Source of the DNA: a virus
DNA length: 64,000 nt
Reading direction: 5' to 3' (one strand)
IMG/VR virus record: IMGVR_UViG_3300020474_000993
Under the pieces are notes generated by a model, which searched no databases, was not told the origin of the DNA, and saw nothing but the letters and a program-made list of their open reading frames with translations. Shown piece by piece: positions 1 to 64,000 of the stretch (positions within the stretch are counted from its first letter, which is position 1; every line of letters begins with the position of its first letter). Position numbers and translations under genes: made by a program.

Positions 1-51
1 CGAGGCTTTTTCACCTAAAGACATTGCCCATAGTTTCCATAATTTTTTCAT
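1..51 (-). CDS. 5' part of a small conserved T4-like hypothetical protein (MKKLWKLWAMSLGEKAS...), truncated by the window edge
   Basis: ATG at 51 just after the stop of the upstream GT; frame open to the edge; not in the ORF track. Confidence 0.6.
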   Translation of the reverse strand, partial: MKKLWKLWAMSLGEKAS

Positions 52-53
52 CT

Positions 54-866
54 TTACCTCCAATGTTCTAATAGTTTGGGGTCTGCAAGTTCGTCCTGTT
101 TGGTATGTCCTCTACTCTCATCCTCAAACGGTAATAAGTCTACATTAAATACACACAAAATACAATTGGGTCTGTATATACCCACATTCAAATCATCTTC
201 TTCCCATGAACGACCACGATTATATGAGTATGCCATATGTGATGGGAAGTAATCCCACAGTTTAGCACCATACTCTCCCCACCTCCATGAGTGGTAGTTA
301 TCGGTTCCGTCCGTATATGTGAACCATATCTTTTCTTGATTTTTTAAAACATCTTCCCATATAGGTTCACATTGGTCATCACTCCACACTTGACAACTTC
401 CATTCGTGTACGCACCATGTGCTAGTTTAAACTGTCTAGTCTGCATGGGTTTCGGGTCTTGCCACCAAGACCTCATTTTTGTTGGTTGTTCTGTATTGTA
501 AGTTAGAAGTGGTGTAATATCATTTTGAATGATTACATCCAAATCAAAGAAGATGAAGCGTCCTGTCGGCTTATCTGGGCCAAAATTGTGAGTGTTAAAG
601 ACAAAAGTTTTAGGCCTGTCCCAGCAACGAGCCATGCCATACTTAAACTCATCAGCGCCGAACCAGTATTTAGGATGGATGGAATCGATGTCTGGAAATG
701 GGATAACTTTAATATTAGGATCGAGTCCCTTATCGTTATCGGTATAACAGTAGAAATGAAAATCCATTGTCGAAGGTGTATTACGCTTAGACATGTTATA
801 AAGACGGTTAACAAAGTGCGGGCCATATTTTTCTCCCCATTTACTGCAAACTACATTAACTCGCAT
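54..866 (-). CDS. GT-A glycosyltransferase-like protein (CxKWGxKY...DLD family)
   Basis: CSKWGEKY N-terminus, CYTD, FFDLDVII DxD motif; start 866 chosen for the GGAG RBS. Confidence 0.75.
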   Translation of the reverse strand: MRVNVVCSKWGEKYGPHFVNRLYNMSKRNTPSTMDFHFYCYTDNDKGLDPNIKVIPFPDIDSIHPKYWFGADEFKYGMARCWDRPKTFVFNTHNFGPDKPTGRFIFFDLDVIIQNDITPLLTYNTEQPTKMRSWWQDPKPMQTRQFKLAHGAYTNGSCQVWSDDQCEPIWEDVLKNQEKIWFTYTDGTDNYHSWRWGEYGAKLWDYFPSHMAYSYNRGRSWEEDDLNVGIYRPNCILCVFNVDLLPFEDESRGHTKQDELADPKLLEHWR

Positions 867-4511: not shown

Positions 4512-6025
4512 TGGATGAGTTGACTAAACTTTTTGAGGCAATTGCAAAAGAGAAAACAAGGACTCTTGATTTGCAAAAAGAAGAAGTCCTCAAGCAAGTT
4601 AAAAAAACTGAAAAGAAAAACGCCCATCGTTCCAAAGTAAAAGAAGACTTTTGGGGGGTGTTTAAGAGCGAACTCAAAAAACTTTCCGAAGAAGAAGAAC
4701 AAAATAAAAATAAGTTAGAAAAGTTAGAGGAAATCAGAGATGAGTTCAAAGATGTAACTCCAATATTATATAAAGAAGAGGTTGAAGAAGAACAAAAATC
4801 AGTTGCTCCCGACTTCCTTGTAGACATCGACCCACAAAAAATGGCAAATGAGTTTGATATTACTCCAGTTAGTAAGATATCAGAAGTGATTATGCCATAC
4901 TCAAAAGAACCATATCAATTAAAAGACCATCCCACGGAACTCATTGAACAACCAGAGGACAATCAAGACCCAGACATTTTTGCCTTAGAGTCAAAAGTTA
5001 ATGAGTTAGAAATGAAGTATGCTGGTGCGGTAGAAGAAATAGAAGAGATAACGGAAGAAGCGCAACCAGAGACATTTAATGTAACTAAAGATGCTTACAG
5101 TGCGGTTATGGATGTTCTTAGTCTCAGACCTGTAGAGAAGAAAGACAAGGATGAAAGACAACTACAAGAACTTGCTGTACAATATCTTGCTGAGAAAAAA
5201 CAAGTTGTACAGGAACAGGTTGATGAAACCGCAAGTGTTCAAAAACAAATAGCAGATATCAATGCGAATATACGACAATTAATATTGGGTATGCAAGGTA
5301 TCGGTGGCGGTGGTGAGGTTCGACTAGAACGCTTAGATGATGTTGACCGTTCATCCGCTACAACAGACGGTAGGTTCCTACGATATAGTTCTTCCACTAA
5401 GAAGTGGGAAGGTGTTGCAATTGATACTGGTGACCAAGCTGCAATCCTAGATAATTCTGGAACACCATCACTTGCAACAGGTGTGACTGCATCTGAAATT
5501 AGAACATTAATTGACGCCCAACAATCTGGTTCTTATGTAACCCTTAGTGGATTGTCTGTGGGTAGTGAAGCATCCGCATCTGGTGATGGTGGGATAGCAT
5601 ATAATAATAGTACTGGTGTATTTACATACACACCACCAGATTTATCTACGAAGGCAAACCTTGCTAGTCCAGCGCTTACTGGTAACCCAACTGCGCCGAC
5701 ACAATCTGCAAGTGATAACAGTACGAAGATTGCTACAACTGCCTATGCTGATACAGCAGTTGCGAACATTGTTGATTCATCACCGGCAGCTTTAAATACT
5801 CTGAATGAACTTGCAGCTGCTTTGGGAGATGATGAAAACTTCTCTACTACAGTTACAAATAGTATTGCTACTAAAGCACCGTTGGCTAATCCAGTATTAA
5901 CAGGAACACCAGCTGCTCCAACCGCTTCAACAGGTACTAACACAACACAGATTGCTACTACAGCATTTGTAAAACAAGAGATAGACGCTCTCAAAGCCTT
6001 ACTATACGCTTACGACCAATCCTAA
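4511..6025 (+). CDS. Fibre/whisker-like structural protein
   Basis: Acidic coiled coil, GGGGEVRLERLDDVD motif, two KA.LA.P.LTG.P.APT tail-fibre repeats and PAALNTLNELAAALG; wac-like position before gp13. Confidence 0.65.
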   Translation: MDELTKLFEAIAKEKTRTLDLQKEEVLKQVKKTEKKNAHRSKVKEDFWGVFKSELKKLSEEEEQNKNKLEKLEEIRDEFKDVTPILYKEEVEEEQKSVAPDFLVDIDPQKMANEFDITPVSKISEVIMPYSKEPYQLKDHPTELIEQPEDNQDPDIFALESKVNELEMKYAGAVEEIEEITEEAQPETFNVTKDAYSAVMDVLSLRPVEKKDKDERQLQELAVQYLAEKKQVVQEQVDETASVQKQIADINANIRQLILGMQGIGGGGEVRLERLDDVDRSSATTDGRFLRYSSSTKKWEGVAIDTGDQAAILDNSGTPSLATGVTASEIRTLIDAQQSGSYVTLSGLSVGSEASASGDGGIAYNNSTGVFTYTPPDLSTKANLASPALTGNPTAPTQSASDNSTKIATTAYADTAVANIVDSSPAALNTLNELAAALGDDENFSTTVTNSIATKAPLANPVLTGTPAAPTASTGTNTTQIATTAFVKQEIDALKALLYAYDQS

Positions 6026-6029
6026 GTCT

Positions 6030-6037
6030 TATAAATA
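6030..6037 (+). promoter_or_regulatory. Late promoter TATAAATA
   Basis: Consensus upstream of gp13. Confidence 0.8.
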
Positions 6038-6072
6038 GTCAAAGTATTAAAACTATTTAAATAGGGGTTCAC

Positions 6073-7029
6073 ATGGCTTTATCCACAAGACAAGGACTCA
6101 TCGACTATTGTTTACGAAGGTTAGGACACCCTGTAATAGAAATCAATGTCGATGAAGACCAAATATCAGATAGAATCGATGATGCCTTTCAACATTGGAA
6201 CGAATATCATTTCGATGGTGTAGAAAGGGCATATGTCAAACACAAGTTAACTGGGTCTACCTTAACTTTAACAGGTAGCGCAACCTTCACATCGGGTGAA
6301 ACAATTACTGGTGGAACTTCTGGTGCAAAATCAACAGTCCACTCATCAAGTTCTGGAACTTCAGTAGTTTATGAAAGAACAAGTACTGCTGAAGTATTTG
6401 AAGCGAACGAAACAATTACAGGTTCGGACTCTGGAACAACTGCAACTATTCAAAGTATATCTAAAGGTGATATAGAAAACGGTTATATACCAATAGGCAA
6501 TGATATTCTAAATGTTGTTAGGGTTTTCAAATTTGGTGCATTGATAGGCAGTAAATCAGATGGATTATTTGATGTGGACTATCAGTTTGCAATGAATGAT
6601 TTATATAATCTACTATCTGCTGATATAACATACTACGCTATGGTCAAGACTCACATGAATTTATTAGAAAGTATATTTAGAAATGAGAGACCAATTAGAT
6701 TCAACAGAAAAACTAATAGATTATATCTGGACACAGATATGGACGCGACCTTTAATATAGATAACTATATTGTTGCGGAAGCATATGCTATATTAGACCC
6801 CACTACATACACCGAAGTGTATGATGATATGTTCTTGAAAAGATATGCCACTGCTCTTATTAAAAGACAGTGGGGTGAGAACATGAAAAAGTTTGGGGGT
6901 ATCGCGTTGCCGGGCGGAGTAACACTTAACGGTGACCAAATATACGGAGAAGCAATCAATGAAGTTGCAGTCATAGAAGATGAAATGCAATTAAAATATG
7001 AATTGCCACCTATGATGATGACAGGGTAA
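6073..7029 (+). CDS. gp13: Neck protein gp13
   Basis: YCLRRLGHPVIEINV, KRQWGENMKKFGG.LPGGVTLNG; synteny. Confidence 0.92.
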   Translation: MALSTRQGLIDYCLRRLGHPVIEINVDEDQISDRIDDAFQHWNEYHFDGVERAYVKHKLTGSTLTLTGSATFTSGETITGGTSGAKSTVHSSSSGTSVVYERTSTAEVFEANETITGSDSGTTATIQSISKGDIENGYIPIGNDILNVVRVFKFGALIGSKSDGLFDVDYQFAMNDLYNLLSADITYYAMVKTHMNLLESIFRNERPIRFNRKTNRLYLDTDMDATFNIDNYIVAEAYAILDPTTYTEVYDDMFLKRYATALIKRQWGENMKKFGGIALPGGVTLNGDQIYGEAINEVAVIEDEMQLKYELPPMMMTG

Positions 7030-7033
7030 GTCA

Positions 7034-7786
7034 ATGGCTACGAATGTTTATTTCCAATCAGGCAATACCAGTGGTACTACTAACGAACAGCGTCTAGTAG
7101 AAGACTTGGTTATTGAAAGTCTAAAGATATATGGACACGATGTTCATTATATGCCTAGGACTTTGGTAAACAGGGATACAATTTTTGATGAAGATGAATT
7201 ATCCAAGTTCACACAACAATACCCCCTTGAAATGTACATGGAGAATGTCGAAGGATATGAAGGAGAGGGTGAACTATTTACCAGATTTGGTATAGAAATT
7301 AGAGACCAAGCAACTTTTATCCTATCTAAAAGACGATGGGAACAAATGGTTGACCGAGAAAAAGATAGTGGTGGCACTTTTCAGTTAGACGCGAGACCAG
7401 CAGAGGGTGATTTGTTGTACTTCCCCAAGACAAAATCTTTATTTGAGATTAAACTTGTGGAGTTTCAAAATCCTTTTTACCAGTTAGGAAAAATTTATAC
7501 TTTTAGGATGCAATGCGAACTCTTTGAATACAGTTCAGAAAGACTTGATACTGGTGATACGGATATTGATGGAATCGAAGACTTACAAAGTCTTGACATT
7601 CTACAGTTCCAGTTCCAATTAGAAAACGGAGACTTGCTGAAACAAGAAAATAATGACACTCTGATACTAGAAAGTTTCCAAACTAGTAGGGGTAATACTG
7701 GTGTAGATAATGCAGACTTTGATGCATGGCAAACTGCATCTAATATACTTGACTTTACGGAGTCTAATCCATTCGGTGAAATATAA
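7034..7786 (+). CDS. gp14: Neck protein gp14
   Basis: ESLKIYGHDV.YMPR, PFYQLGK.Y, CELFEYS; synteny. Confidence 0.92.
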   Translation: MATNVYFQSGNTSGTTNEQRLVEDLVIESLKIYGHDVHYMPRTLVNRDTIFDEDELSKFTQQYPLEMYMENVEGYEGEGELFTRFGIEIRDQATFILSKRRWEQMVDREKDSGGTFQLDARPAEGDLLYFPKTKSLFEIKLVEFQNPFYQLGKIYTFRMQCELFEYSSERLDTGDTDIDGIEDLQSLDILQFQFQLENGDLLKQENNDTLILESFQTSRGNTGVDNADFDAWQTASNILDFTESNPFGEI

Positions 7787-8781
7787 TGTTTAAAAATAAA
7801 CAATTTTATAATCAACATACACGCAAAGCTATTATTGCATTTGGTACTATCTTTAATAATATCCAAATAAATAGAGTTAATGCTGGTGGTGTTACTGAAC
7901 AAGTTATTCGGGTTCCTCTTTCATATTCTACAAAACAAAAGTTTCTGACTAGGATTGAGGCAATTCCAGATACGGAATCTCGTGGAGAGGTTGCAATTAG
8001 TTTGCCTCGCATGGGGTTTGAAATTGTAGGATTCCAATATGACCCATCAAGAAAGGTCTCACCCATACAAAAAAACATAACTACTAGTGGTGCAGAAACC
8101 AATTCATATAAAACAAGTTTCGTATCTACACCATATGATATGAATATGTCTTTGTATGTTTTTGCAAAGAACCAAGAGGATGCCTTACAAATAGTAGAAC
8201 AAGTGTTCCCATACTTCAACCCAGATTTTAATGTGACTATAAATGATTTGCCTGAGTTGGGTATAAAAAGAGATATCAAAATAACTTTGGATAGTGTTAG
8301 TTATGAAGATACCTTTGAAGGTGCATTTGCAGACAGACAAGCTATTAACTGGACACTTAACTTTACAATGAAATTAAATTATTATGGATTTGTAGATAAA
8401 CAATCATTTATCAAAAAAGCAATAGCACAAACATATGAGAATAATGACTTTCTAGGGCCTAGAGTTCAACAGTCGTTCTCAGTTGGGACTACACTACCAA
8501 CCGCAACCGCTACAATAGGTAGTGGTTCGGTAACAGATTTTACTATAACATATGGTGGAGCGGGATATACTAGTCCACCTAACATTACTCTTACTGGTAA
8601 CGCGAGGGCACATGCCGAGATTACTAATGGAGAAGTAACAAGTATTGTTATAGATGATGCTGGGAGTGGTTATTCAGAAGCACCTACTGTGACATTTGAA
8701 GAACCACCTAATTATAATGCAGACCCCTATAAGGATGACCCATATAGGTTCGTGGAGGAGTTTGACCAAACTTATGTATAA
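7786..8781 (+). CDS. gp15: Tail terminator/sheath stabiliser gp15 with C-terminal beta-rich extension
   Basis: AFGTIFNNI, LPRMGFE, QIVEQVFPYFNP. Confidence 0.9.
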   Translation: MFKNKQFYNQHTRKAIIAFGTIFNNIQINRVNAGGVTEQVIRVPLSYSTKQKFLTRIEAIPDTESRGEVAISLPRMGFEIVGFQYDPSRKVSPIQKNITTSGAETNSYKTSFVSTPYDMNMSLYVFAKNQEDALQIVEQVFPYFNPDFNVTINDLPELGIKRDIKITLDSVSYEDTFEGAFADRQAINWTLNFTMKLNYYGFVDKQSFIKKAIAQTYENNDFLGPRVQQSFSVGTTLPTATATIGSGSVTDFTITYGGAGYTSPPNITLTGNARAHAEITNGEVTSIVIDDAGSGYSEAPTVTFEEPPNYNADPYKDDPYRFVEEFDQTYV

Positions 8782-8783
8782 CT

Positions 8784-9227
8784 ATGCCAAAAAATAAAGT
8801 ATTTGATGCACTCGATAAAACATTCAACACCGTAACTACAGAAATTGCTGAAAAAAAAGGTGGGGCTATCGCTGTGCCCGATAAAGAAGAAGAAAAACTA
8901 GACAAGGACTTTGAGGAAGCAAGAAACCTTTTAAAGCGTTCTGCTGAGTACGCGGAAGAAGCCGCTCAAGGTATCTTGCATGTCGCTACCAATAGTGACA
9001 ACCCTCGTGCCTATGAAGTTGCTGGACAAATCATCAAGACTATGGGTGAACAAGCTAAAGACATGATGGAAGTCCAAGAGAAGAAACATCGAATTGAAAA
9101 AAATTCGGATGCACCCAAGACTATTAGTAAGACAACTAACAACCTAGTATTCACTGGAACAACTTCAGAACTTATGAAACAATTGAAAGCAGAGAACGAA
9201 AAAATTATAGACCATGAGCAAGATTGA
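8784..9227 (+). CDS. gp16: Terminase small subunit gp16
   Basis: PRAYEVAGQ, NNLVFTGTTSEL; synteny. Confidence 0.9.
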   Translation: MPKNKVFDALDKTFNTVTTEIAEKKGGAIAVPDKEEEKLDKDFEEARNLLKRSAEYAEEAAQGILHVATNSDNPRAYEVAGQIIKTMGEQAKDMMEVQEKKHRIEKNSDAPKTISKTTNNLVFTGTTSELMKQLKAENEKIIDHEQD

Positions 9228-10842: not shown

Positions 10843-10845
10843 ATA
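10838..10845 (+). promoter_or_regulatory. Late promoter TATAAATA
   Basis: Consensus upstream of gp18. Confidence 0.8.
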
Positions 10846-10905
10846 ATTGTTAGGAATAACTATTTAGTCAAGATAGATTAAAAACGAAATACGAAGGAGA
10901 ACAAA

Positions 10906-16626: not shown

Positions 16627-16631
16627 AGATT

Positions 16632-52365: not shown

Positions 52366-52371
52366 ATATTA

Positions 52372-52456: not shown

Positions 52457-52471
52457 ATATATGGAGAAATT

Positions 52472-53329: not shown

Positions 53330-53649
53330 TGCCACTTTACGAAATCGAAAACACCGAAACAGGTGAAATCTTTGAAGTTATGATGAAGATTGATGACAAA
53401 GAAAAAATGTTACAAAAAAATCCACATTTCAAACAAATTCCAAGCGCTCCCAATATCAATAAAGGTGGTGTGGGTGACAGGGTTAAACCCGATGGTGGAT
53501 TCAAAGATGTTTTATCTAAGATTGCTGATGCAAATCCAACATCTAAACTTGCTGATGACTATGGAAAGAAAGATAAAAAATCAGTCGCTGTCCGTGACAG
53601 TATGAAACGAGTCAAAAAGAAATTAGGTTCTATTACAGACGGTTCATAG
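53329..53649 (+). CDS. Conserved hypothetical protein (FmdB-like N-terminus)
   Basis: MPLYE..N.ETGE, GFKDVLSKI...NP. Confidence 0.65.
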   Translation: MPLYEIENTETGEIFEVMMKIDDKEKMLQKNPHFKQIPSAPNINKGGVGDRVKPDGGFKDVLSKIADANPTSKLADDYGKKDKKSVAVRDSMKRVKKKLGSITDGS

Positions 53650-53653
53650 TATT

Positions 53654-54094
53654 ATGAAGATAATGACATTGTGGGGTGAAGAAGAAGTTCATAACACAAG
53701 AATGTGTATACACTGTAAACAGGTAAAACACGAAGAAGAATTTGGTATAAGGTCATATACGAAAAATGGAGTTAAATCAGAAAGAAGAAATGATTGCAAT
53801 TCCTGTCGTAAAAAAGAAACTAAAATAAGAAATCAATTAAAGAAACAATATCCTAGACCTATTAATAAGGACTATAGATGTCCTAGATGTAATAGAAGTC
53901 AACAAGACTTTATTGATGAGGGTAGATTTGTTCATACCAAGAAGAAGTCTATATTTGTTTTAGACCATGACCATGAAACAGGACAATTCAGAGGATGGAT
54001 ATGTGACTACTGTAATACTATATGTGCAAGAGCATACGATGACCCCAGTATATTAGAGGCAAATGCAAGGGCATTAAGAGAATTCAGATTGTGA
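53654..54094 (+). CDS. Endonuclease VII-like (His-Me) nuclease
   Basis: CPRC, LDHDHETG.FRGWIC..CN plus an N-terminal CxxC pair. Confidence 0.85.
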   Translation: MKIMTLWGEEEVHNTRMCIHCKQVKHEEEFGIRSYTKNGVKSERRNDCNSCRKKETKIRNQLKKQYPRPINKDYRCPRCNRSQQDFIDEGRFVHTKKKSIFVLDHDHETGQFRGWICDYCNTICARAYDDPSILEANARALREFRL

Positions 54095-54134
54095 ATATTA
54101 CCATTATCCGATATTGATTTTTACTGCTATTCCA

Positions 54135-54142
54135 TATAAATA
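54135..54142 (+). promoter_or_regulatory. Late promoter TATAAATA
   Basis: Consensus. Confidence 0.75.
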
Positions 54143-54197
54143 TGTTAGTGTCAAATAATTGACACACTCGATTCATAACCGAAAAGAGGACATTGTT

Positions 54198-55070
54198 ATG
54201 AAATGGTTTAAAATCATTACTGCAATCTTTTTGATTTCAGTAGTAAATGTGGGGTGTGCTTCAGCCTCTGGTGGTAATTACTATGAAGCAGTGCAAAAGG
54301 CAGCAGAAGCGAAAGCGAAAGTGTCTGAAGCACGATATCGAGCTCTTGCTCAAGTCGCATCTAGTGGTGATGGTCAGGCTGCATCCGCAGCTGTTATGGC
54401 AATCGCACTATCTAATGATGCTACAATTGTTCCACAGTATGTCGAATCTTCTGCTCTGAAATGGGCGCAAGTCTTGACACCAACTATCGGAACACTAGGA
54501 TTGGGTATCGTTCAAGCAAATGTTGCTAAGAACGCTGCTAACAAGGCTGCTGAAGTTCAAATGGCTTCTATGCAGGCCAATGCAGATATCCAACTAGGTC
54601 AACAAAGTATGATTAGTAACATGGGTGGACAGTGGGCTGATGTCGCAGCTGCTGGTGGGCAAGCAACAGTAGATGTTGCTCTCGCTGGATTTGGTGCATT
54701 GAATACCGCTGGTGACCAGACTGTTACACTCGGTCTCGCTGGGTTGGATACTGCTACAGTTGGTATGAACAATCTCAATGAGTTGGGTCAGTTTGGTATG
54801 ACTACTATTGGTGCAGTCTCTACCACTGGTATGAACAATCTCGTTGGGTTGGGTCAGTACGGTATTGATGCAGCTGAAACTCTAGGTATTCAAGGTATGT
54901 TGGGTATTCATGAGACCAATGAAGATTGGTTAACTTATACCGCTAGTAGTGATACTAACTTTGCTACGATTCTCGCAGACTTTAACGCGACAATCAAACA
55001 ATTTGGAACAGATTTGGGAACCCCTATCACATGTAACGCTGATGCAAACGGAGTGTTTACTTGTCAATAA
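54198..55070 (+). CDS. Ala/Gly-rich lipoprotein with internal repeats
   Basis: Signal peptide plus VNVGC lipobox; GMNNL..LGQ.G repeats. Confidence 0.65.
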   Translation: MKWFKIITAIFLISVVNVGCASASGGNYYEAVQKAAEAKAKVSEARYRALAQVASSGDGQAASAAVMAIALSNDATIVPQYVESSALKWAQVLTPTIGTLGLGIVQANVAKNAANKAAEVQMASMQANADIQLGQQSMISNMGGQWADVAAAGGQATVDVALAGFGALNTAGDQTVTLGLAGLDTATVGMNNLNELGQFGMTTIGAVSTTGMNNLVGLGQYGIDAAETLGIQGMLGIHETNEDWLTYTASSDTNFATILADFNATIKQFGTDLGTPITCNADANGVFTCQ

Positions 55071-55084
55071 TTACATAAAAGTTG

Positions 55085-55117
55085 TATAAATATAGGGGAC
55101 AATAAGTCCCCTTTTTT
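55085..55117 (+). terminator. Terminator AGGGGAC-AATAA-GTCCCCT followed by a T run, abutting late promoter TATAAATA (55085-55092)
   Basis: Perfect stem plus U tract. Confidence 0.85.
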
Positions 55118-55134
55118 AATTATGAGGTAATATT

Positions 55135-55581
55135 ATGGAAAAGAAAGAAATAAAGAAAGTATTGGATGGTGCAGAATTCGTGATGAAGGACATGCCTGAA
55201 GAGTTAAAAGAAGTTTTGAAAACACAAATTGTGAATCCAAAACTAATGGATGAATTTGATAACTTATACGATGAAGATATCGATGCTGAAACAGTCAAAG
55301 CATTATCCCACGCATTAGAATTAGACTACATTGAAAAATGGAAAGTCTTTGCTCAAATGAAACTCCTAGAAAAGAATTTTGCTATTGCTGAACAGGCAAG
55401 GGTTGCTTTGCGTGAACAATTAACAACTGCTAATGCCAATGTTCAAGTTCTTTTGAGGAACTATGAAGAGAAAAAAATTGGATTAGACCACGAAATAAAA
55501 GAGAAACTAAAAGTAAAAGAAGAACTTAAATTAGTTCGTGCTGAATTGAAGAACCTTAAAAAGAAGACGCCTGAATTATAA
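55135..55581 (+). CDS. Coiled-coil hypothetical protein
   Basis: GAGGT RBS. Confidence 0.6.
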   Translation: MEKKEIKKVLDGAEFVMKDMPEELKEVLKTQIVNPKLMDEFDNLYDEDIDAETVKALSHALELDYIEKWKVFAQMKLLEKNFAIAEQARVALREQLTTANANVQVLLRNYEEKKIGLDHEIKEKLKVKEELKLVRAELKNLKKKTPEL

Positions 55582-55615
55582 ATAGTGGCAAACAAAATGT
55601 TTATGGAAAGAGTTA

Positions 55616-56869
55616 ATGGTCGGATTTTTATCATATCTAAACGAAGATGCACAGGGCAAGAACCTACATCTTGAACACCTAGAAGACGAAATATTAAATT
55701 TCGGAATAGGTGGAGCTCGTGGTGCAATTAATTTCTTACAGGCATTGAGAGATATGTTGTCGGGAAGTTCTCGTTCATCCGTAAATATGACAGTTAAATG
55801 GGACGGTGCTCCTGCTATATTTGCTGGTATTGACCCCAGTGATGGTAAATTTTTTGTTGCTAAGAAAGGTGTATTCAATAAGACACCACTATTATATAAG
55901 TCCACACAAGAAATAAACAAAGACAGTAAATTGCCACAGGCATTAAAACCCGCCTTTACAATCGCGTTACAAGAATTTAGCAAACTCGGCATCAAGAGTG
56001 TATTACAGGGTGACTTAATGTTTACACAGGCATCTCTTGAATCTGAAACTATAGATGGTGAGAGGTACACCACATTCCAACCAAACACTATAGTCTATGC
56101 TATTCCAAAGATGTCAGAACTGGAACAAAGAATTAAAGCTGCTAAGATTGGTGTTGTTTGGCACACATCATATACAGGTAACACATTAGAAGGTATGAAG
56201 GCATCTTTTGGTGTAAACATTAGTAGTCTTAGAAAATCAAGAAGTGTCTGGATGGATGATGCTAGTTATAGAGATACTAGTGGAACTTCTACATTTACGC
56301 AAACAGAGACATCTGCTGTTACTACAAAACTATCCGAGTGTGGTAGAATATTTAAGAAAATAAATTCAGCACAATTAAACAATTTCTTAAAATTTCAAAA
56401 TGGGTTTTCTGGAAAAATGGTTGGCGCCAATATCAAAACCTATAATAATTCAAAAGTAAAGGTTGGTGCGAAGATAACTAATGTCTCTGGCCATGTGTCT
56501 GGATACGCAAAGTGGGTAGAAGACAAATTTGATACAGAGATAAATAAGTTAAAAACGGAACAGTCACAGAAAAAACTAGAGATAAAAAAGAAAGAAACTT
56601 TAAGGGAACTAAATCAATATACTGCTCTTCTTATAAATGTTATCAATTTTCAGAACTCTATGGTAGATGCTAAAATGATAATTGTTAGTAAACTAAATAG
56701 AGTAAAACAGTTGATGGATACTTTTGTCAGAACTAAACAAGGATTTAAAGTTACAAATCCAGAAGGATATGTTGCAATCGATAGGGTGTCTGGTAATGCT
56801 GTTAAACTGGTAGACAGAATGGAATTTAGTTATAATAACTTTACTGCAATTAAGGCGTGGGATAGATGA
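55616..56869 (+). CDS. DUF6267-like protein with ATP-dependent ligase/NTase motifs
   Basis: NLHLEHLED, KWDG, QGDLMF, EGYV, VKLV; late promoter at 55577-55584. Confidence 0.7.
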   Translation: MVGFLSYLNEDAQGKNLHLEHLEDEILNFGIGGARGAINFLQALRDMLSGSSRSSVNMTVKWDGAPAIFAGIDPSDGKFFVAKKGVFNKTPLLYKSTQEINKDSKLPQALKPAFTIALQEFSKLGIKSVLQGDLMFTQASLESETIDGERYTTFQPNTIVYAIPKMSELEQRIKAAKIGVVWHTSYTGNTLEGMKASFGVNISSLRKSRSVWMDDASYRDTSGTSTFTQTETSAVTTKLSECGRIFKKINSAQLNNFLKFQNGFSGKMVGANIKTYNNSKVKVGAKITNVSGHVSGYAKWVEDKFDTEINKLKTEQSQKKLEIKKKETLRELNQYTALLINVINFQNSMVDAKMIIVSKLNRVKQLMDTFVRTKQGFKVTNPEGYVAIDRVSGNAVKLVDRMEFSYNNFTAIKAWDR

Positions 56870-57453
56870 AAACATTAGTATATGCATTTGGAAGGATGAA
56901 CCCGCCTACTGCTGGTCATGGAAAACTTGTACAGAAGGTAAAACAACTTGCTCAAAGAGAAAGAGCAGACCACCTTATTGTAGTTAGTCACAGTCAAGAT
57001 AAACATAAGAACCCATTGACCCCACAGAAAAAAGTTGCCCATCTTAAAAAGATGTTCACAGGAACTAAATTCAAGGCATCTGATAGAGTCAACCCAAACT
57101 TCATAAAACAATTAGGTCTACTTACAGGAAAGTATGATAAGGTTATTATGGTTGCTGGTTCAGATAGGGTTCAAGAATTCCAGAGGATACTGGATAGATA
57201 CAATGGTAAGGATTTTAAATTTGACGAAATAGATGTAATCTCTGCTGGACAAAGAGACCCAGACGCGGAAGGCGTAACTGGTATAAGTGCTAGTAAGATG
57301 AGACTGTTCGCCAAGAACAATGATTTTAACTCATTCAAAAGAGGGTTGCCCGCTGGTTATAGTGGGTCTCAAGCTTTATTCAAAGATGTGAAGAGTGGGA
57401 TGGAGTTAAAGGAAGATAAACACTACACTTTTTCACAATTTTTAAGAGGATAA
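56866..57453 (+). CDS. HIGH-motif nucleotidyltransferase (cytidylyltransferase/NMNAT-like)
   Basis: FGRMNPPTAGH, GSDR, SASKMR. Confidence 0.85.
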   Translation: MKTLVYAFGRMNPPTAGHGKLVQKVKQLAQRERADHLIVVSHSQDKHKNPLTPQKKVAHLKKMFTGTKFKASDRVNPNFIKQLGLLTGKYDKVIMVAGSDRVQEFQRILDRYNGKDFKFDEIDVISAGQRDPDAEGVTGISASKMRLFAKNNDFNSFKRGLPAGYSGSQALFKDVKSGMELKEDKHYTFSQFLRG

Positions 57454-57456
57454 AAT

Positions 57457-58119
57457 ATGTCAAAATATCTAAAGGGTTTATTACCCACAACAGGATTGAA
57501 GTTCGACCCTAGTTCGGCACCTCATGGATACGCAGACCCCACTTCTAGTGGCGATGCTTTTTTACCAGACCTTGATTTCCCAAATGGGAAATGGGGATTA
57601 TTCGGGGCAAAATCAAGTGGGCCTGGCATCAGTGAACCAACTGATTTACCAGATGAATACTATGAAGAAGTAGCAGATAGAGAAGAACTTCTTGAACAAC
57701 TAAAAGAGGATGAAGGAGTAAAATATGAAATCTATCTCGACCACCTTGGGTACGCCACCTGTGGTATCGGTCATCTCCTCAAAGATGGGGACGAAGAATA
57801 TAACAAAGAAGTCGGAACCGAAGTCTCAGAAGAAAGAGTCATTGAACTCTTCAAACAAGATATCGGAATTGCCTGCCGAGACGCCGTTAATTTATACGGC
57901 TGGTCTGGATTTTGTGAGTGGCCAGAGGAAGTCCAAAATATCTGTATTAATATGATATTCAATATGGGTATGACTAGACTTAGCAAGTTTAAAAACATGC
58001 ACAAGGCATTAGAACAACAGAATTGGAAACAAGCAGCCATTGAAGGCCGCGACTCTAAATGGTACACACAAGTAACCAATAGAGCAGAAAGATTAATGAG
58101 TAAACTTGAAGAAGTATAA
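57457..58119 (+). CDS. T4-type lysozyme (GH24) with an N-terminal extension
   Basis: EG....Y.D.LGYAT.GIGH, NM.FNMG, S.WY.Q..NRA.R. Confidence 0.88.
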   Translation: MSKYLKGLLPTTGLKFDPSSAPHGYADPTSSGDAFLPDLDFPNGKWGLFGAKSSGPGISEPTDLPDEYYEEVADREELLEQLKEDEGVKYEIYLDHLGYATCGIGHLLKDGDEEYNKEVGTEVSEERVIELFKQDIGIACRDAVNLYGWSGFCEWPEEVQNICINMIFNMGMTRLSKFKNMHKALEQQNWKQAAIEGRDSKWYTQVTNRAERLMSKLEEV

Positions 58120-58166
58120 ACTGTATTTACACGGACGAATACACAAACAGGGAAGGATATGAACAA

Positions 58167-58751
58167 ATGGAGTGGATACTAGATTTAGCTATGACTTTTT
58201 GGATGTGGACGGTATTAATTGCCATCATCTTGATAGGTTGGATTATTGATAGATTAGACATGAGGGAAGAGACAGGATTAACATTTTCAATGAAGGAAAT
58301 GCCAGTCTTAAAACCAATTGTCATAGAGACAAAGGGTAAGGGGTTTTGGAAATCAATGCTTCATTGGTTTTTGTCTACAAGAAATTGGGAAGTAACCAAA
58401 GACTGGCACTACACAATAGATGATATTGAGTATGTTATTCCGAAAGGATTTCAGTTTGATGGTGCTAGTATTCCAAAATTTCTGAGAACATTTTTTTCTC
58501 CAGTAGGTATAATGCTGGTTGGTGGATTGGTACATGATTATGGATATAAGTATGAGACTTTGCTAATGAAAGGCAAAAAGAAAACAGTTGGAATTAAAGA
58601 CCAAAAGTGGATGGATGAAGTATTCAAAGACATTAATATTAATGTTAATGGGTTCTATCTATTTAACATTCTATCTTATTGGTCATTGAGATTGGCTGGA
58701 TTCATTGCTTGGAATGGGCATAGGAAACGGAACTTATCACCAAATATTTAA
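58167..58751 (+). CDS. DUF1353 family protein
   Basis: IPKGF.FDGASIP, VHDYGY. Confidence 0.8.
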   Translation: MEWILDLAMTFWMWTVLIAIILIGWIIDRLDMREETGLTFSMKEMPVLKPIVIETKGKGFWKSMLHWFLSTRNWEVTKDWHYTIDDIEYVIPKGFQFDGASIPKFLRTFFSPVGIMLVGGLVHDYGYKYETLLMKGKKKTVGIKDQKWMDEVFKDININVNGFYLFNILSYWSLRLAGFIAWNGHRKRNLSPNI

Positions 58752-58763
58752 TAAGGTTAAATT

Positions 58764-58979
58764 ATGACAGAAGTAGAATTGGTACAAAAATATAGCAACA
58801 AACTTGCTGAGTTGAACGAATTGCGAGACAGTGGTATGCTTAGTTTTGACGAATATAATGATTTAGTTGAGGACTTTCGAGATGTAAAAGCAATCGAAGC
58901 AGATATTGATGACCCCAAGTTAAAAGTATTTGCTAGTGCGGTAGTCAATAGTGTCTCATCCCAGATTAAAACATTATAA
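58764..58979 (+). CDS. SHOCT-like small protein
   Basis: LNELRDSGMLSFDEY. Confidence 0.6.
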   Translation: MTEVELVQKYSNKLAELNELRDSGMLSFDEYNDLVEDFRDVKAIEADIDDPKLKVFASAVVNSVSSQIKTL

Positions 58980-58990
58980 ATAGTCTTACT

Positions 58991-61336
58991 ATGGAAAAGA
59001 CTTTTGCAGACTTTGTAGACATACCAGAGCTTGAAGAAGGTGTCAATGACCCTGCCATTTTCAAGGCAATTTTCCTTGCCGGCGGGCCTGGGTCTGGTAA
59101 GTCTTTCATGGTTGGACAAACAGGTCTAACTGGATTGGGTTTCAAGATAGTCAACTCCGACCAACAATTTGAAATCGCCTTAAAAAAAGCAGGATTAACT
59201 CAAAAACCAGAAGACATATTCTCAACAAAAGGTCAATCTCTCAGAGACCGAGCTAAATTACTCACTGGAAAAAAACAAGATGGATATCTTGGTGGTAGAC
59301 TTGGATTAGTCATTGATGGTACTGGTAGAGAGTACGACAAAATCTCAAAACAAAAAACAGAACTAGAAAAACTGGGATATGAAACTGCCATGATAATGGT
59401 AAATACATCCCTACAAACTGCTGTTGGCAGAGACCAAGCAAGAGACAGGACATTGGGTAAGGCCGCTATCACTCCAATGTGGAAAGCGGTTCAGACAAAC
59501 ATTGGTAAATTTTCAAACCTTTTTAAACAAAATATGTACATCGTAGATAATTCGGATGGTGCAGATTTTAAAAGAGGTGCATTGTCTGTATATAGAAGTC
59601 TTATGTCTTGGTCAAAGAGACCACCTCAAGACAGGCGGGCAAAAGCATGGATTAAAAACGAAAAACAAAAACGCAATATCAAAGAAGAAAAAAAGAACTG
59701 TGGATGTGGACAAGACCCTTGTATCACATATGGCAAAAAAGAATTAAAACAAAAAATTAAAGAAGAATTACCACCGCATTTAAAAAGACATTTCGATAAG
59801 AAAGGAAATGTAGTACAGGGTACATGGAAAGATGGTAAGTGGAGTCCGAACAAGAAACAACCAAAAATCAAGACCACTATCAGAGATGTGACACCAAAAG
59901 GATATGGCCCAACCGAAGATATCAAGAACATGGATATGGGTGATGTAATCACAGATTTCTATAATAGTGATGCACCTCAGTTCAAAGGTAAATCTAAAAA
60001 GAAACGCAGAGAGATGGCGATTGCCGCTAAACTTTCTACTGAAGGAGTTTTTGACAGGGATTCTAAATCAAACTCTTTTAACAGAACTAAGTCTAAAACC
60101 ACAAAAGTAAAAATGGGTACTAAGGGTGGTAAACCAGTATACGGAAAATCTACCACACCTCAAGGATTCCCAAAACTATCAGAAGATTTAAGAAAGTGGT
60201 TTGGTAAAGGTAAGAAGGGGGATTGGATTCGCGTAGGCACAGACGGTGACATCAAGGGAGATTGTGCAAGAGAGCCTGGCGAGGGTAAACCGAAGTGTAT
60301 GCCTAGAGACAAAGCACACAGTATGTCTAAAAAAGACAGGGCGACATCTGCCAGAAGGAAACGCAGAGAAGACCCAGTTGCAGATAGAAAAGGTAAAGGT
60401 GGAAAACCAGTAATGGTTAAAACCGATGTCAAAGAAGATGTTCAAATTAGTAGGTACGAATGGGGTAGACCAGATGGTACTGCTTATATGAAAGCGCTGA
60501 CGCCTGGCGAGCCTGGTAAGACAACTAAAAAGAACAGGTCTAACGGAAACAAGAAACATTACAAGGCAGTAATGGAAGCAGGAGATAAAGAAGAATTAAA
60601 ATCAATATCATCTGCAACTCATGACCAAATGCATAAAGATGTAGATGGGACTCAAGATGACTTTGAAGGAATCATTACTCTTGATACTATGGATAATGAT
60701 TGGACTGCAATATTCACAGAACCAGAAATAGAAGCGATTGAACACGAAGTTGATGAACTTTCATTTGAAGATATGATGGGTCTGGGGATGTATGACAAAG
60801 AAGAATTAGAAGACTTTGAAGCATTTGACCAAGATATAGATTGGCATGATGATATACAAATAACTGAGGTTCTATCTATTCAAGGTAGAATGAAAAGGCG
60901 ATTCGCTGCTAGGAGAAATAGACAAAAACTTAAAGTTGCTCGTATGAGGGCATCAAGAAGGGCTGCTGACCCTGCTAGGTTGAAGAAGCGTGCTACTCGT
61001 GGTGCGAGGAATATGCTTAAGAATAGGATTGCTAGGGGTAGGGATTTAACTGCATTGCCACCCGCTGAGAAGGCTCGTATTGAAGGTATGGTAATGAGAT
61101 TTTCTGGATTAGTATCTAGGATTGCTCAGAGAATGATACCTATTGTTCGTAGGAATGAGATGAAAAGATTGAAATCTGGGTCAAGACAGAAATCACAAAA
61201 GGCGAAGAAGTATAATCCTAAGAAAGCATTAGCTTCTGCTTCAAAACAGAAGGGTAAAAAGTTTAAAGCAAGTAAGAAAACCTTTGCTAAACCAAAATTA
61301 GCAAGTAAACCAAAGGCGGCAACAAAAACGAAATGA
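58991..61336 (+). CDS. Multidomain late protein: P-loop kinase (zeta-toxin/PNK-like) plus several small modules
   Basis: AGGPGSGKS, VNSD, IDGTG; late promoter at 58975-58982. Confidence 0.75.
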   Translation: MEKTFADFVDIPELEEGVNDPAIFKAIFLAGGPGSGKSFMVGQTGLTGLGFKIVNSDQQFEIALKKAGLTQKPEDIFSTKGQSLRDRAKLLTGKKQDGYLGGRLGLVIDGTGREYDKISKQKTELEKLGYETAMIMVNTSLQTAVGRDQARDRTLGKAAITPMWKAVQTNIGKFSNLFKQNMYIVDNSDGADFKRGALSVYRSLMSWSKRPPQDRRAKAWIKNEKQKRNIKEEKKNCGCGQDPCITYGKKELKQKIKEELPPHLKRHFDKKGNVVQGTWKDGKWSPNKKQPKIKTTIRDVTPKGYGPTEDIKNMDMGDVITDFYNSDAPQFKGKSKKKRREMAIAAKLSTEGVFDRDSKSNSFNRTKSKTTKVKMGTKGGKPVYGKSTTPQGFPKLSEDLRKWFGKGKKGDWIRVGTDGDIKGDCAREPGEGKPKCMPRDKAHSMSKKDRATSARRKRREDPVADRKGKGGKPVMVKTDVKEDVQISRYEWGRPDGTAYMKALTPGEPGKTTKKNRSNGNKKHYKAVMEAGDKEELKSISSATHDQMHKDVDGTQDDFEGIITLDTMDNDWTAIFTEPEIEAIEHEVDELSFEDMMGLGMYDKEELEDFEAFDQDIDWHDDIQITEVLSIQGRMKRRFAARRNRQKLKVARMRASRRAADPARLKKRATRGARNMLKNRIARGRDLTALPPAEKARIEGMVMRFSGLVSRIAQRMIPIVRRNEMKRLKSGSRQKSQKAKKYNPKKALASASKQKGKKFKASKKTFAKPKLASKPKAATKTK

Positions 61337-61809
61337 TAAAATTTACAGAACTATTAGAAAAAAATGTACCGACCAATCCAAAGTTATGGTCTAAGTTTAA
61401 ATCACAGGCGAAATCAAAGTTTGATGTCTATCCCTCAGCATACGCGAATGGGTGGGCTGCCAAACAATATAAGAAAGCTGGTGGTGGATGGAAGACTGTA
61501 TCAGAAGAACTATCAGAGGAGACTGGCGAACAAATCACCATCATTAGTGAAGAGGGTGAAAAGAAGAAAGTCAAACTGGGTAAAGTTCAGAGAGGCGGTA
61601 GTAAGAAATTTTATGTACATGTCAAAAACGATAAAGGTAATGTTGTCAAGGTATCGTTTGGTGACCCAAATATGGAAATAAAACGAGATGACCCAGAACG
61701 CAGAAAGTCATTTCGTGCAAGGCACAATTGCGACAATCCAGGCCCTCGCTGGAAGGCAAGATACTGGAGTTGTAAGCAATGGAGGGCCGGTTCCAAAGTA
61801 GAGGATTAG
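61333..61809 (+). CDS. Two-domain basic protein common in large phages
   Basis: PSAYANGW..K.YK..GG.W; VSFGDP.M.IKRD.PERRKSFRARH.C. Confidence 0.7.
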   Translation: MIKFTELLEKNVPTNPKLWSKFKSQAKSKFDVYPSAYANGWAAKQYKKAGGGWKTVSEELSEETGEQITIISEEGEKKKVKLGKVQRGGSKKFYVHVKNDKGNVVKVSFGDPNMEIKRDDPERRKSFRARHNCDNPGPRWKARYWSCKQWRAGSKVED

Positions 61810-61810
61810 T

Positions 61811-62050
61811 ATGATTGAGTGGTTAAAAAAGATATTCTACGAGGAGTGGGAAATAACAATTTTCTATCCTGCTGAAACTAGAGTATTAGCAGATGGAACC
61901 AGAGTCGAAAGTCTAAAACCAAAAACATATAGGGCAAAAGCTCTAAAAAAGATATCTGAGAAACATTTTAAGTTTATTGATACTGAAGGTGTACTACATG
62001 AAATAAAAGTAGTCAACCCAGTTGGATACGATATTAAAAAGGTGTATTAA
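61811..62050 (+). CDS. Hypothetical protein
   Basis: GAGG RBS, coupled. Confidence 0.6.
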   Translation: MIEWLKKIFYEEWEITIFYPAETRVLADGTRVESLKPKTYRAKALKKISEKHFKFIDTEGVLHEIKVVNPVGYDIKKVY

Positions 62051-62253
62051 TGGAAGGACAAAGTATTAGTTCAGTTCCACCTGTATCCAGTATTGCTTCT
62101 TCATGGAGTGATAGACAGGTTGTTACAAGAGTATATTCTGGTGATAATGGACAAGTTAAAGTTCAACAGGATATATACAATATAACTGTATATGACGCGA
62201 TGGGTAACAAACAAACTGTGACAACTTCACACAGTATTGATTACCTAGTTTAA
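62050..62253 (+). CDS. Hypothetical protein
   Basis: TAATG coupling. Confidence 0.55.
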   Translation: MEGQSISSVPPVSSIASSWSDRQVVTRVYSGDNGQVKVQQDIYNITVYDAMGNKQTVTTSHSIDYLV

Positions 62254-62333
62254 TTATGTTCCTGTGATTGGTATCCCTAGCACTTGAACTTTATAAATAA
62301 TACCTATAAACGAATTTATATTGGAGATACCAA

Positions 62334-64000
62334 ATGTCCAGCAACTTAGACAGAATAATTAGAGAAGTCCTCACAGAAGGACAAAGTACTCTATTAGAAG
62401 CGGATATGTCAAGGAGACTTGATATGTTAGTGAGACAGGGATTAATGCCTGCATCACAATTACCTATTTTAAAACGCGGTTTAGAGAAATTCAACCAAGG
62501 TAAAGTGCCTGCTCCGAATGAAAGAAACGCGGTCAACACACTATTAAACGGTATGATGTTCATCGTATTGGGTGACGATACTGTATTCAATAGAGCAAGA
62601 ACCTCTGTACAACAGAAAAAATATCAAACAGAAGACTTAGAGGAATGTAAATCCGAAGAAGATTTCAAACCTCATATGATGTATGACCCTAAGACAGGCA
62701 AAGGCGTAAAAGCAGAAACTTACGAAGACCATGTAAAATTAGATAAAAAGGGATATACTCACGAGAAACCAGATGTTACTGAAGAATATGAGATAGTATC
62801 TGAAGCATATAAAACTGGTCACAAGTCTTATACCGATGCAGTTAATCACGCAATGGATCATCACAAAAAAGGTGGATTAGAATCTTCAGCAGATGACAGG
62901 GCACAACATATAGGTCTGGATTCCAAAAAGCCAGGCGAGGGTAAAACTACTCGCGTGAATCTTCCTGCTAAAGATAAAAATGGCAAGAAACATATGGTTC
63001 ATATGCAAGTCTATAACAAGGGTGGTTCACATCCATATGAGTTAAACACATACTCAAGTACAACAAAAGCATTGCAAAAAGAAGAACAACAGTTAGATGA
63101 GTATGGTGCAATGAGAAACGATAATCCATCTGCAAATACTGGTGGAATGAGAATTTCAAATAAAGACGCAGCTGCTGCCAAAGAAAGAGCAAAGAAAAAG
63201 AGTGCAGAGAAACGCGACAAGTTATCAAACATTATCAAAAAGAATACCATCCAGAAGGGCCCCATGAAAGGTTACATGACGGATGAAACTAATCAAGAGG
63301 AACAACAAATGAAAATAGATTGGTCTAAAAATCCTTTCGCTCAAGCAAAAGCAATGGAGGAAGGTGCATTTAAACGAATGGCCACCGATGCTGAAGAAAA
63401 TAGATTAGCCGCAGAAAGGAAGGCCAAGAAATTATCTGCTAAGAAAAGTAAAGAAGAAAAAGATACAGACCCCGGCATAGAGGAATCTGAATATTCAAGA
63501 CCCAAAGAGAAATCTGAGGACGAAACCAAAAAGATAAAGGCAAAGATGAAGGCGAAAGCAGAAGAAAAGCCTAACTATCAATCAGAAGGTGTCGCTAAGA
63601 ATACTCTTGATATCTATCAGGCACATGCTGATGCGAAGGGTAAGAAAACCCTCAAGTCTATTAGTAAACAAATGAATAAGGCGGTTACTAAAGCCAACGC
63701 AAAACTAAAGGAAGACTTAGAAGGTTTACCAGAGTTGGATGACATGGACTTAGAGATGCAAGAGAACTATCAGTCACCTACTAAGAACAACTATTCTGAT
63801 AAAGAACTTAGACAGGCCAAAGGTATCGCATTTGATAAGAGATACAAAGGTGGTAACATGACAGGTGCTGCTAAGGCAATGGAAAAAATCAAGAAAGGTT
63901 TATCCGACCATCCTGTTGCCTCTAAAGCATTACGAAAGGCAAATGAAGAACATTTAAAAGCCGAATATATTGACATGTTTGATGTAGAAAATTTCTCAGA
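62334..64000 (+). CDS. Large late multidomain (probably head-internal) protein, truncated by the window edge
   Basis: TATAAATA at 62292, GGAG RBS, MSSNLDRIIREVLTE...; frame appears open to 64000; not in the ORF track. Confidence 0.75.
   Translation, partial: MSSNLDRIIREVLTEGQSTLLEADMSRRLDMLVRQGLMPASQLPILKRGLEKFNQGKVPAPNERNAVNTLLNGMMFIVLGDDTVFNRARTSVQQKKYQTEDLEECKSEEDFKPHMMYDPKTGKGVKAETYEDHVKLDKKGYTHEKPDVTEEYEIVSEAYKTGHKSYTDAVNHAMDHHKKGGLESSADDRAQHIGLDSKKPGEGKTTRVNLPAKDKNGKKHMVHMQVYNKGGSHPYELNTYSSTTKALQKEEQQLDEYGAMRNDNPSANTGGMRISNKDAAAAKERAKKKSAEKRDKLSNIIKKNTIQKGPMKGYMTDETNQEEQQMKIDWSKNPFAQAKAMEEGAFKRMATDAEENRLAAERKAKKLSAKKSKEEKDTDPGIEESEYSRPKEKSEDETKKIKAKMKAKAEEKPNYQSEGVAKNTLDIYQAHADAKGKKTLKSISKQMNKAVTKANAKLKEDLEGLPELDDMDLEMQENYQSPTKNNYSDKELRQAKGIAFDKRYKGGNMTGAAKAMEKIKKGLSDHPVASKALRKANEEHLKAEYIDMFDVENFS

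Follow-up and report, generated by a model that had tools for sequence, protein, structure and literature searches.

Why does a stretch of marine phage DNA keep the word CCNGG only where a G precedes it or a C follows it, and which enzyme could be responsible? We addressed this question in the window (the whole analysed stretch of DNA, 64,000 nucleotides of the virus record IMGVR_UViG_3300020474_000993), for which an earlier reading of the letters, here called the original prediction, had proposed a cytosine modification in GpC context that shields restriction sites. Our analysis finds a genome stripped of restriction-type words, in which the surviving words obey one flank rule that points to a protective mark in the context GCY. 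Taken as a whole, the reading that we tentatively adopt, at a little under even odds, is restriction-driven recoding combined with a GCY mark, with the Mom-family enzyme encoded at 37938-38753 as its writer. The original prediction had overlooked this gene.

Genomes compared and null model

The window is T4-like myovirus DNA with 37.8% G+C and genes almost all on the + strand, including those for terminase, sheath, portal, gp23, UvsW, gp46/47, DNA polymerase, UvsX and a helicase. It sits inside a 140.6-kb Tara Oceans metagenome contig, of which record positions 6,779-95,833 (89 kb) were examined with Pfam tables, while relatives from IMG/VR covered the remainder. The main relatives, G1 (137 kb) and G2 (161 kb), are each ~87% identical to the window and amount to ~300 kb when pooled; the G2 genome is complete and circularly permuted, because G1 bridges the junction of both G2 ends. 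Judged by gp23, the closest cultured phages are the Methylophilales (OM43) phage Melnitz (69.5% identity; host H5P1) and the Pelagibacter phage HTVC008M (68%). Among the other comparison genomes, G8 and G10 are complete, and G9, G4 and G5 are 85%, 39% and 46% complete, respectively. The phage is abundant: its capsid protein turns up unaltered in 97 blocks of the assembly collection, and Tara Oceans samples account for many of these. Word counts are given as observed versus expected, with the expectation taken from 300 codon-preserving shuffles that retain the protein sequence and codon usage of each gene. This footprint method, in which flank-conditional survival is scored against a codon-preserving null, is usable on any uncultured virus.

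Anatomy of the remaining CCNGG sites

The window holds 28 CCNGG sites, and every one of them has a 5' G and/or a 3' C, exactly as the original prediction had stated. All the sites that it had named are among the following, which range over 6910..63475.

6910, 9937, 10429, 10924, 11506, 12358, 12472, 14438, 19563, 20506: surviving CCNGG, first part
21477, 23913, 26629, 29394, 31098, 32231, 37517, 41274, 45320, 50222: surviving CCNGG, middle part
57622, 59087, 60275, 60503, 60512, 61738, 62931, 63471: surviving CCNGG, last part

Unflanked sites (HCCNGGD) number 0 versus 39.6 +/- 4.7 expected (z -8.5), flanked sites 28 versus 18.3, and doubly flanked GCCNGGC sites 17 versus 2.3 (z +13). Nearly all the survivors, 27 of 28, are Pro-Gly codon pairs; 25 were assigned from gene calls, and 37517 and 50222 were added from frame 0 of the open reading frames (ORFs) 37355-37969 and 49934-50317. 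The sole exception, at 21477, reads GGC CAG GTT, and only 1 CCNGG is left in the other two reading frames, where ~29 would be expected. Since Pro-Gly always spells CCN GGN, these sites are not removable by synonymous change. The preference for GGC as the Gly codon, already recognized in the original prediction, holds at 25 of the 27 Pro-Gly sites, and G is the last base of the codon before the pair in all 18 cases among the 25 called pairs where the amino acid permits it. Genome-wide, Pro-Gly pairs also make up 63 of 66 and 73 of 78 CCNGG sites in the two ~87% identical relatives. Pro-Gly dipeptides are themselves scarce in the window genes (25 versus 41.8 expected from composition), and restriction pressure therefore extends to the protein sequence.

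The flanks appear as constrained positions in the comparison of the window with G1 and G2, respectively. Four-fold degenerate sites are 72-75% identical, the third-base C of Gly at Pro-Gly sites is kept in 20/20 and 20/20 cases, and the G preceding these sites in 16/17 and 16/16. The central third base of Pro drifts, with 19/22 and 14/22 kept. The shield flanks of the window lineage are thus under active, current selection.

The related word GGNCC needs a different treatment. As had been noted, Gly-Pro is written GGCCC or GGGCC, and neither GGACC nor GGTCC occurs (GGWCC 0 versus 36.3, z -8.0; GGSCC 31 versus 20.4). As evidence for a shield, however, this is trivial: avoidance is limited to GGWCC, and the remaining spellings GGGCC and GGCCC include GC by necessity. 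For unflanked CCNGG and for GGWCC, the shuffles therefore bear out the avoidance, and the signature turns out to be broader than first described.

The purge and its rescue by a 5' G

About 30 restriction-type words have been purged from the window genome. ACGT (0 vs 113), CGWCG (0 vs 37), TTCGAA (0 vs 19) and TCTAGA (0 vs 19) are missing, and GATC is reduced to 16 vs 192. In pooled G1 and G2 the purge includes ACGT (0 vs 536), GGWCC (0 vs 180), GGTACC (0 vs 46), GTCGAC (0 vs 21), GTGCAC (0 vs 23) and TGCGCA (0 vs 19), and extends to GACGAC (0 vs 58), CGTCTC (2 vs 53), ACCTGC (10 vs 104) and YGCGCR (0 vs 43). Such avoided words predict the restriction enzymes carried by the host, among them enzymes for ACGT, GATC, GGWCC, CGWCG, CCGG, CCWGG, TCAGG and TTCGAA.

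Several words with an initial C are lost from the window in their unflanked form, namely CCGG (0 vs 32.3), CCWGG (0 vs 32), CCATGG (0 vs 5.3) and CTTAAG (0 vs 11.1), and persist when flanked. CCGG is found with a single flank in 8 vs 13.6 and with a double flank in 2 vs 1.2 cases, flanked CCATGG in 6 vs 4.9 and flanked CTTAAG in 2 vs 5.0.

5783, 6910, 10924, 19564, 29785, 30222, 31099, 59079, 61787, 63472: surviving CCGG, ten sites, range 5783..63475
4014, 22111, 33277, 35835, 40058, 51238: surviving CCATGG, all G...C flanked
39685, 61016: surviving CTTAAG, all G...C flanked

An unbiased scan of G1 and G2 for words that survive conditional on one flanking base returned almost exclusively words with an initial C for which a 5' G restores survival. 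The unflanked and G-flanked counts are, respectively, 4 vs 330 and 60 vs 62 for CCTGA, 9 vs 179 and 122 vs 38 for CCTGG, 1 vs 93 and 26 vs 16 for CCCGT, 0 vs 119 and 23 vs 19 for CCTGCR, 1 vs 50 and 18 vs 9 for CCCGCR, and 6 vs 81 and 22 vs 15 for CCAGTC. Palindromes in the same pool follow suit: CCGG stands at 0 vs 154 without a flank, 24 vs 70 with one and 12 vs 8.7 with two, CCATGG at 0 vs 29 without and 24 vs 20 with flanks, and both CTGCAG (0 vs 36) and CTTAAG (0 vs 41) are absent when unflanked. The doubly flanked PstI word GCTGCAGC is also missing from G1 and G2 (0 vs 9.8), yet singly flanked copies persist.

Altogether, at least ten different words are rescued by the 5'-G rule, among them CCGG, CCATGG, CTGCAG, CTTAAG, TCAGG and ACGGG. 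A control crossed the possible first bases with the flank pairs, which gives 16 combinations; rescue was confined to 'initial C, flank G...C' and was never seen for words lacking the initial C; rescue of G|CG (CGWCG, CGCG) was never seen either. The shield context is therefore GCC or GCT (in one lineage, A is also allowed as the third base), and it lies at the base pair with which the restriction word begins. At palindromes a flank on both strands is favoured, and asymmetric words need one (TCAGGC, 60 vs 62). Two other signatures were considered and rejected: an S-flank shield of AGCT, for which the excess of CAGCTG and GAGCTC arises from poly-Ala codon runs, and a decay of GpC as a sign of 5-methylcytosine deamination, since GpC observed/expected ratios are 0.93-1.07 in all genomes.

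The flank rule in other lineages

The same flank rule is obeyed in four other lineages, although the avoided words differ. For CCNGG, CCATGG, CTCGAG and CTGCAG, G9 has 4 vs 198 unflanked and 162 vs 102 flanked copies. Unflanked and flanked counts are, respectively, 0 vs 74 and 44 vs 27 in G4, 22 vs 126 and 89 vs 86 for CATG in G5, and 1 vs 183 and 77 vs 76 in Melnitz. The complete relative G8 purges CATG and CCGG whatever the flank. G8 (IMGVR_UViG_3300008952_000005, loci L151-L159) has N4/N6 methylases of its own, with four N6_N4-methylase matches; its CATG count is 0 vs about 280, and its GATC is retained only as GGATC (121 vs 175, against 0 vs 210 otherwise). In the complete, Mom-less G10 (IMGVR_UViG_3300021963_004854, loci L160-L168), sites survive with the outer C or G doubled (C|CAGCTG, G|GTAC...C), and no recognisable methylase or other writer was found for this CC/GG-type rule. 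In the Mom-bearing Psychrobacter phage Y8A (40 kb), avoidance is too small for flank-rule scoring.

Some restriction enzymes show flank effects on cleavage rate or have degenerate outer positions. Hence, the pattern could in principle arise with no modification at all, if host enzymes spared G...C-flanked sites or if their true words were longer (HCCNGGD and the like). We consider this quite improbable: the identical rule governs at least ten unrelated words and affects only those with an initial C, doubly flanked palindromes are preferred to singly flanked ones, and the rule is common to lineages with different avoided sets, while G8 purges its words irrespective of flank. Because at least ten unrelated words cannot all share one outer-base preference, we infer a modification, and it is likely from these patterns that a protective mark in GCY context exists on the phage DNA. 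The GpC or GCC context of the original prediction thus seems right for GCC and GCT, but not for G-C-G, which is never rescued.

We propose that the hosts of this phage may carry many restriction enzymes, under which the genome would have been recoded to lose their target words. Words that are irremovable, such as CCNGG at Pro-Gly, and the tolerated remainder do persist only with a G directly 5' of the first C, which yields GCC or GCT on one strand or, by preference, on both. A post-replicative mark would then sit at the G-C step, either on the C or on the paired G, alternatives that look the same in the sequence, and, since the restriction site begins at this base pair, the mark would block cleavage. 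A palindrome with two flanks would carry the mark on each strand and be fully protected, one with a single flank would be half protected, and asymmetric words such as TCAGG would be protected by one flank.

The known GpC system and its absence from the window lineage

As shown by Burke et al. 2021 (PMC8256090), the C5-methyltransferases that phages pair with TET dioxygenases have GpC[C/T] as their target, a preference that has not been met elsewhere. The footprint context (GCC and GCT, not GCG) equals this published specificity, which makes the background invoked by the original prediction an apt one. In Melnitz (MZ577097, locus L189 4010-6194), a C5-methyltransferase gene (PF00145, E 7e-55) has a TET/JBP gene (PF12851, E 3.6e-11) directly behind it, and the Melnitz shield is explained by this known system. 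The Melnitz record labels the TET/JBP gene hypothetical and the Mom gene (69571-70380) 'DUF465', and neither gene is mentioned in the Melnitz paper (PMC9004378).

The window lineage lacks this pair. Profile searches found no C5-methyltransferase (PF00145) in G1-G3, the complete G2 included, nor in the partial genomes G9, G4 and G5. TET/JBP (PF12851) was not found in G1, G2, G3 or G9 by a profile search validated on the positive controls G4 and Melnitz, whose TET proteins are 63% identical, and the 46%-complete G5 has neither enzyme. Searches by tblastn with the Melnitz C5-methyltransferase and TET gave no match in the window-lineage relatives even at E 1. Six-frame profiles of G1, G2 and G3 likewise gave no PF01555, PF02086, PF02384, PF01702 or PF00303 (N4/N6, D12, N6_Mtase, TGT/DpdA and thymidylate-synthase-type hydroxymethylase). 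The original prediction had seen neither enzyme in the window, which we confirm, and had left the rest of the genome as a place to look for them; there, too, the search was negative, over 89 kb of the contig and the complete G2. In the window, uvsX comes directly after the DNA polymerase gene without an intervening gene, at the position where Melnitz has the pair. Since the shield is kept without the pair, the writer in the window lineage must be something else. The lineage would have lost the pair, or may never have had it.

The window resembles the published C5-methylase/TET phages in its GpC plus C/T context, in the presumed escape from restriction, in being a metagenomic marine myovirus and in having a glucosyltransferase-like tailoring candidate with a GT-B fold. 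It differs from them in that both enzymes are missing while the footprint is under active selection. Our analysis contributes the dissection of the Pro-Gly sites, the specificity control with sixteen combinations, a complete relative without the known pair, the test for selection and the phyletic screen. Short-motif methylation offers a further parallel, as with the GpC methylase M.CviPI of the chlorella viruses: palindromes are purged and sites overlapping a dinucleotide-type mark survive. In the window, by contrast, ~30 words are affected, several of them at zero, every Pro-Gly pair is rewritten, and there is no recognisable methyltransferase. A known mark context without the known enzymes means that a widespread DNA-modifying activity still lacks its enzyme.

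A modification of the 7-deazaguanine (DpdA) type was prompted by a weak QueC match and rejected, because PF01702, PF01242 and PF01227 (TGT, QueD, FolE) are absent. The match is a partial QueC-like PP-loop gene between nrdA and nrdB (locus L147 12611-13249), ~7.7-8.3 kb beyond the window end, with no other queuosine or DpdA gene.

The glycosyltransferase-like gene

The original prediction assigned the final step of hypermodification to a beta-glucosyltransferase (BGT)-like gene, which lies directly downstream of a small nucleotidyltransferase gene.

24997..25395, + strand: small nucleotidyltransferase, cytidylyltransferase-like, immediately upstream of the glycosyltransferase (PF01467, E 2e-15; phrog_7878)
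25397..26383, + strand: GT-B glycosyltransferase with a T4 alpha/beta-glucosyltransferase-like fold (AlphaFold2 model, Foldseek)

The assignment of the fold stands. The alignment-based AlphaFold2 model of ORF 25397 has a predicted local distance difference test score (pLDDT) of 86.7 (a single-sequence fold, at pLDDT 31, was unusable), and its top 13 Foldseek matches in the PDB are T4 alpha-glucosyltransferase (AGT) or BGT structures (1y6f, 1qkj, 1bgt; template-modelling scores 0.51-0.65). These share the GT-B fold and are the best structural matches, with only ~13% identity, and the ORF has no Pfam match (PF09198 included) and no PHROG match.

The proposed role fares less well. The gene is confined to the window lineage and missing from the other footprint-bearing lineages, so that it does not track the footprint. 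Nor does the genome contain a 5-hydroxymethylcytosine pathway that could supply an acceptor, as neither a PF00303 dCMP hydroxymethylase-type gene nor TET was found. For the full route, C5-methylation at GpC followed by TET oxidation and BGT-like glucosylation, the fitting GpC[C/T] context, the T4-like glycosyltransferase and the methylase/TET pair of Melnitz can be cited. Set against these are the missing C5-methyltransferase and TET/JBP genes in the window, the 89 kb of contig and the complete G2, together with the empty junction between DNA polymerase and uvsX. The sequence evidence therefore largely refutes this pathway for the window phage, and we regard its operation there as very improbable.

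A Mom-family gene as candidate writer

One gene follows the footprint across the lineages.

37938..38753, + strand: Mom-family DNA-modification enzyme, GNAT fold, marine subfamily (PF25680, phrog_1384, PDB 8BV8)

The product matches PF25680 at E 1.5e-59 over profile positions 2-197 of 202, and Mu Mom (PDB 8BV8) at E 4.6e-24, with a C-terminal extension. Mom is the sole G2 gene that is present in all shield lineages (the window lineage, G9, G4, G5 and Melnitz) and absent from G8 and G10. Mu Mom takes glycine from Gly-tRNA-Gly and attaches it to the N6 position of adenines in S-A-S; the product, N6-carbamoylmethyl-adenine, is a context-specific post-replicative mark that blocks many restriction enzymes (PMC13219725). 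The window protein shares with it the full-length family match, the GNAT core and five of the seven active-site residues named for Mu Mom, H58, Y59, S124, D149 and Y159, which are invariant in the marine alignment (A1).

The window lineage also encodes a tRNA-Gly-like RNA. A pattern search revealed a conserved non-canonical tRNA-Gly(UCC)-like RNA in G2 at 144921-144989 (+) and in G1 at 134294-134363 (-) (locus L140 4921-4989). It has a Gly-type acceptor stem, U73, an encoded CCA, a shortened D-arm and an odd T-loop, lies ~85 nt downstream of a tRNA-Arg(UCU), and shows compensatory anticodon-stem changes between G1 and G2; neither ARAGORN nor Rfam called it. ARAGORN also reported a permuted two-piece tmRNA in G1 (locus L131 3648-3988), as described for Melnitz-like phages.

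The marine subfamily departs from Mu Mom in the flipped-base pocket. Throughout alignment A1, R111 of Mu is replaced by K and R151 by I or V, both residues lining that pocket in Mu, and in Mu Mom the changes R111K and R151A are crippling (PMC13219725). The residues that are essential in Mu are K and I here, and the context suggested by the footprint has no obligatory adenine. As a writer, Mom would need a new target base, because G|CCGG, ACGGG|C and G|CTTAAG contain no required adenine. Words that contain S-A-S (CTGCAG, GGACC and CGACG) are still avoided in the window lineage.

An adenine S-A-S signature was not found in the footprint; G9 tolerates both single-flank classes of CCWGG, with no A-strand effect, which bears on the footprint rather than on the enzyme. 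A Mu-like adenine shield at C-A-G-G-C had the appeal that the critical flank falls on the +3 'Y' position of Mom and that CCAGGC is commoner than GCCAGG. It was rejected because no adenine is required for the shielding of ACGGG|C, CCGG|C, GACTGG|C or G|CTTAAG, and because of the same tolerance in G9; the asymmetry in the window lineage exists because TCAGG-type words are additionally avoided. A model with a modified base (A or C) just 5' of GGC was rejected on the same grounds.

Provided that the mark exists, the distribution and family membership of the gene make the Mom-family enzyme, by a modest degree, the probable writer. Among the candidates this aminoacyl-tRNA-dependent GNAT enzyme ranks first, and it would have to act on a base other than adenine. 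A more specific proposal, which we hold only as a speculation, is that the marine Mom subfamily (K111/I151 type), which occurs in Melnitz-like phages and related, abundant myoviruses of the ocean, could be an aminoacyl-tRNA-dependent transferase acting on cytosine (N4) or on the paired guanine at G-C-H. If true, the DNA base hypermodification so produced would be a new one, a functional stand-in for the C5-methylase/TET mark in the same context and readable from codon choice, and tRNA-dependent DNA modification would reach beyond adenine.

Several observations weigh against this assignment or against the mark itself. Mu Mom acts on adenine in S-A-S, but the shield contexts need no adenine, and a new target base would be without precedent. 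Melnitz and G4 carry Mom in addition to the C5-methyltransferase/TET pair or TET, so Mom is unnecessary there. The phyletic correlation compares five lineages, which are related, with two; shared ancestry confounds it, and three of the genomes are incomplete. G10 follows its flank rule without a recognisable writer, and writers outside the recognised families therefore occur in such phages. Finally, AGCT is reduced to 0.45 despite containing GCT.

The G10 rule also favours a related alternative, in which the GCY mark would come from a different phage enzyme, one that escapes the family models for DNA modifiers, and Mom would serve another purpose, e.g. adenine modification. One candidate is a 224-residue MTS/PrmA-like S-adenosylmethionine methyltransferase adjoining the dCMP deaminase gene, ~9.9 kb beyond the window end; it is present in the contig of the window, G2 and G3, and members of its family are common across contigs of marine viruses. 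Another is a partner of the ORF 25397 glycosyltransferase, whose fold resembles DNA glucosyltransferases. However, the 224-residue protein is devoid of the (D/N/S)PP(Y/F) and PC/ENV motifs of DNA methyltransferases, resembles PrmA/PRMT, and was not found in G9, G4, G5, Melnitz, G8 or G10. The glycosyltransferase is limited to the window lineage, and only Mom has the matching phyletic pattern. We therefore consider an unrecognised phage writer unlikely, though by no means negligible.

The mark could also come from the host, if a conserved host GCY methyltransferase made a phage gene unnecessary and the Melnitz copy merely extra. The OM43 host of Melnitz is stated to have a gene for a DNA methylase of type II as well (PMC9004378), and Melnitz and the window lineage avoid very similar sets of words, which suggests similar hosts. 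On the other hand, the Melnitz C5-methyltransferase has no close relative in 185,579 species genomes, in a search that reaches close relatives only. Host enzymes rarely methylate a fast lytic phage fully, yet TCAGGC stands at full expectation, and hosts with a GCY methylase are not expected to retain restriction enzymes blocked by it. A host origin is thus improbable in our judgement, and the Mom-family enzyme remains the preferred writer.

Neighbouring genes and minor observations

The genes that adjoin Mom, and a further gene upstream of the nucleotidyltransferase and glycosyltransferase genes, are as follows.

23640..24752, + strand: DruA-like protein, common to G9 and G5 (PF14236, E 1e-7; phrog_19197)
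38750..39517, + strand: nucleotidyltransferase plus cupin (mannose-6-phosphate isomerase C-terminal-like), adjoining Mom (PF01467, PF01050)
39708..41441, + strand: radical-SAM plus SDR-like gene, adjoining Mom (PF04055)

The radical-SAM/SDR gene at 39708-41441 is absent from G1 and present in G2, and is therefore an accessory gene; it is not needed for the footprint, because G1 retains the footprint without it. No methyltransferase domain was found in ten ORFs of a 'tailoring island' upstream of the window. In the window, 8 of the 16 residual GATC sites lie in the context ATGATC/GATCAT. The words ACGCGA/TCGCGT are four-fold enriched there (40 vs 9.3, codon-preserving shuffles), and CGCGAG and CACGCG are enriched too.

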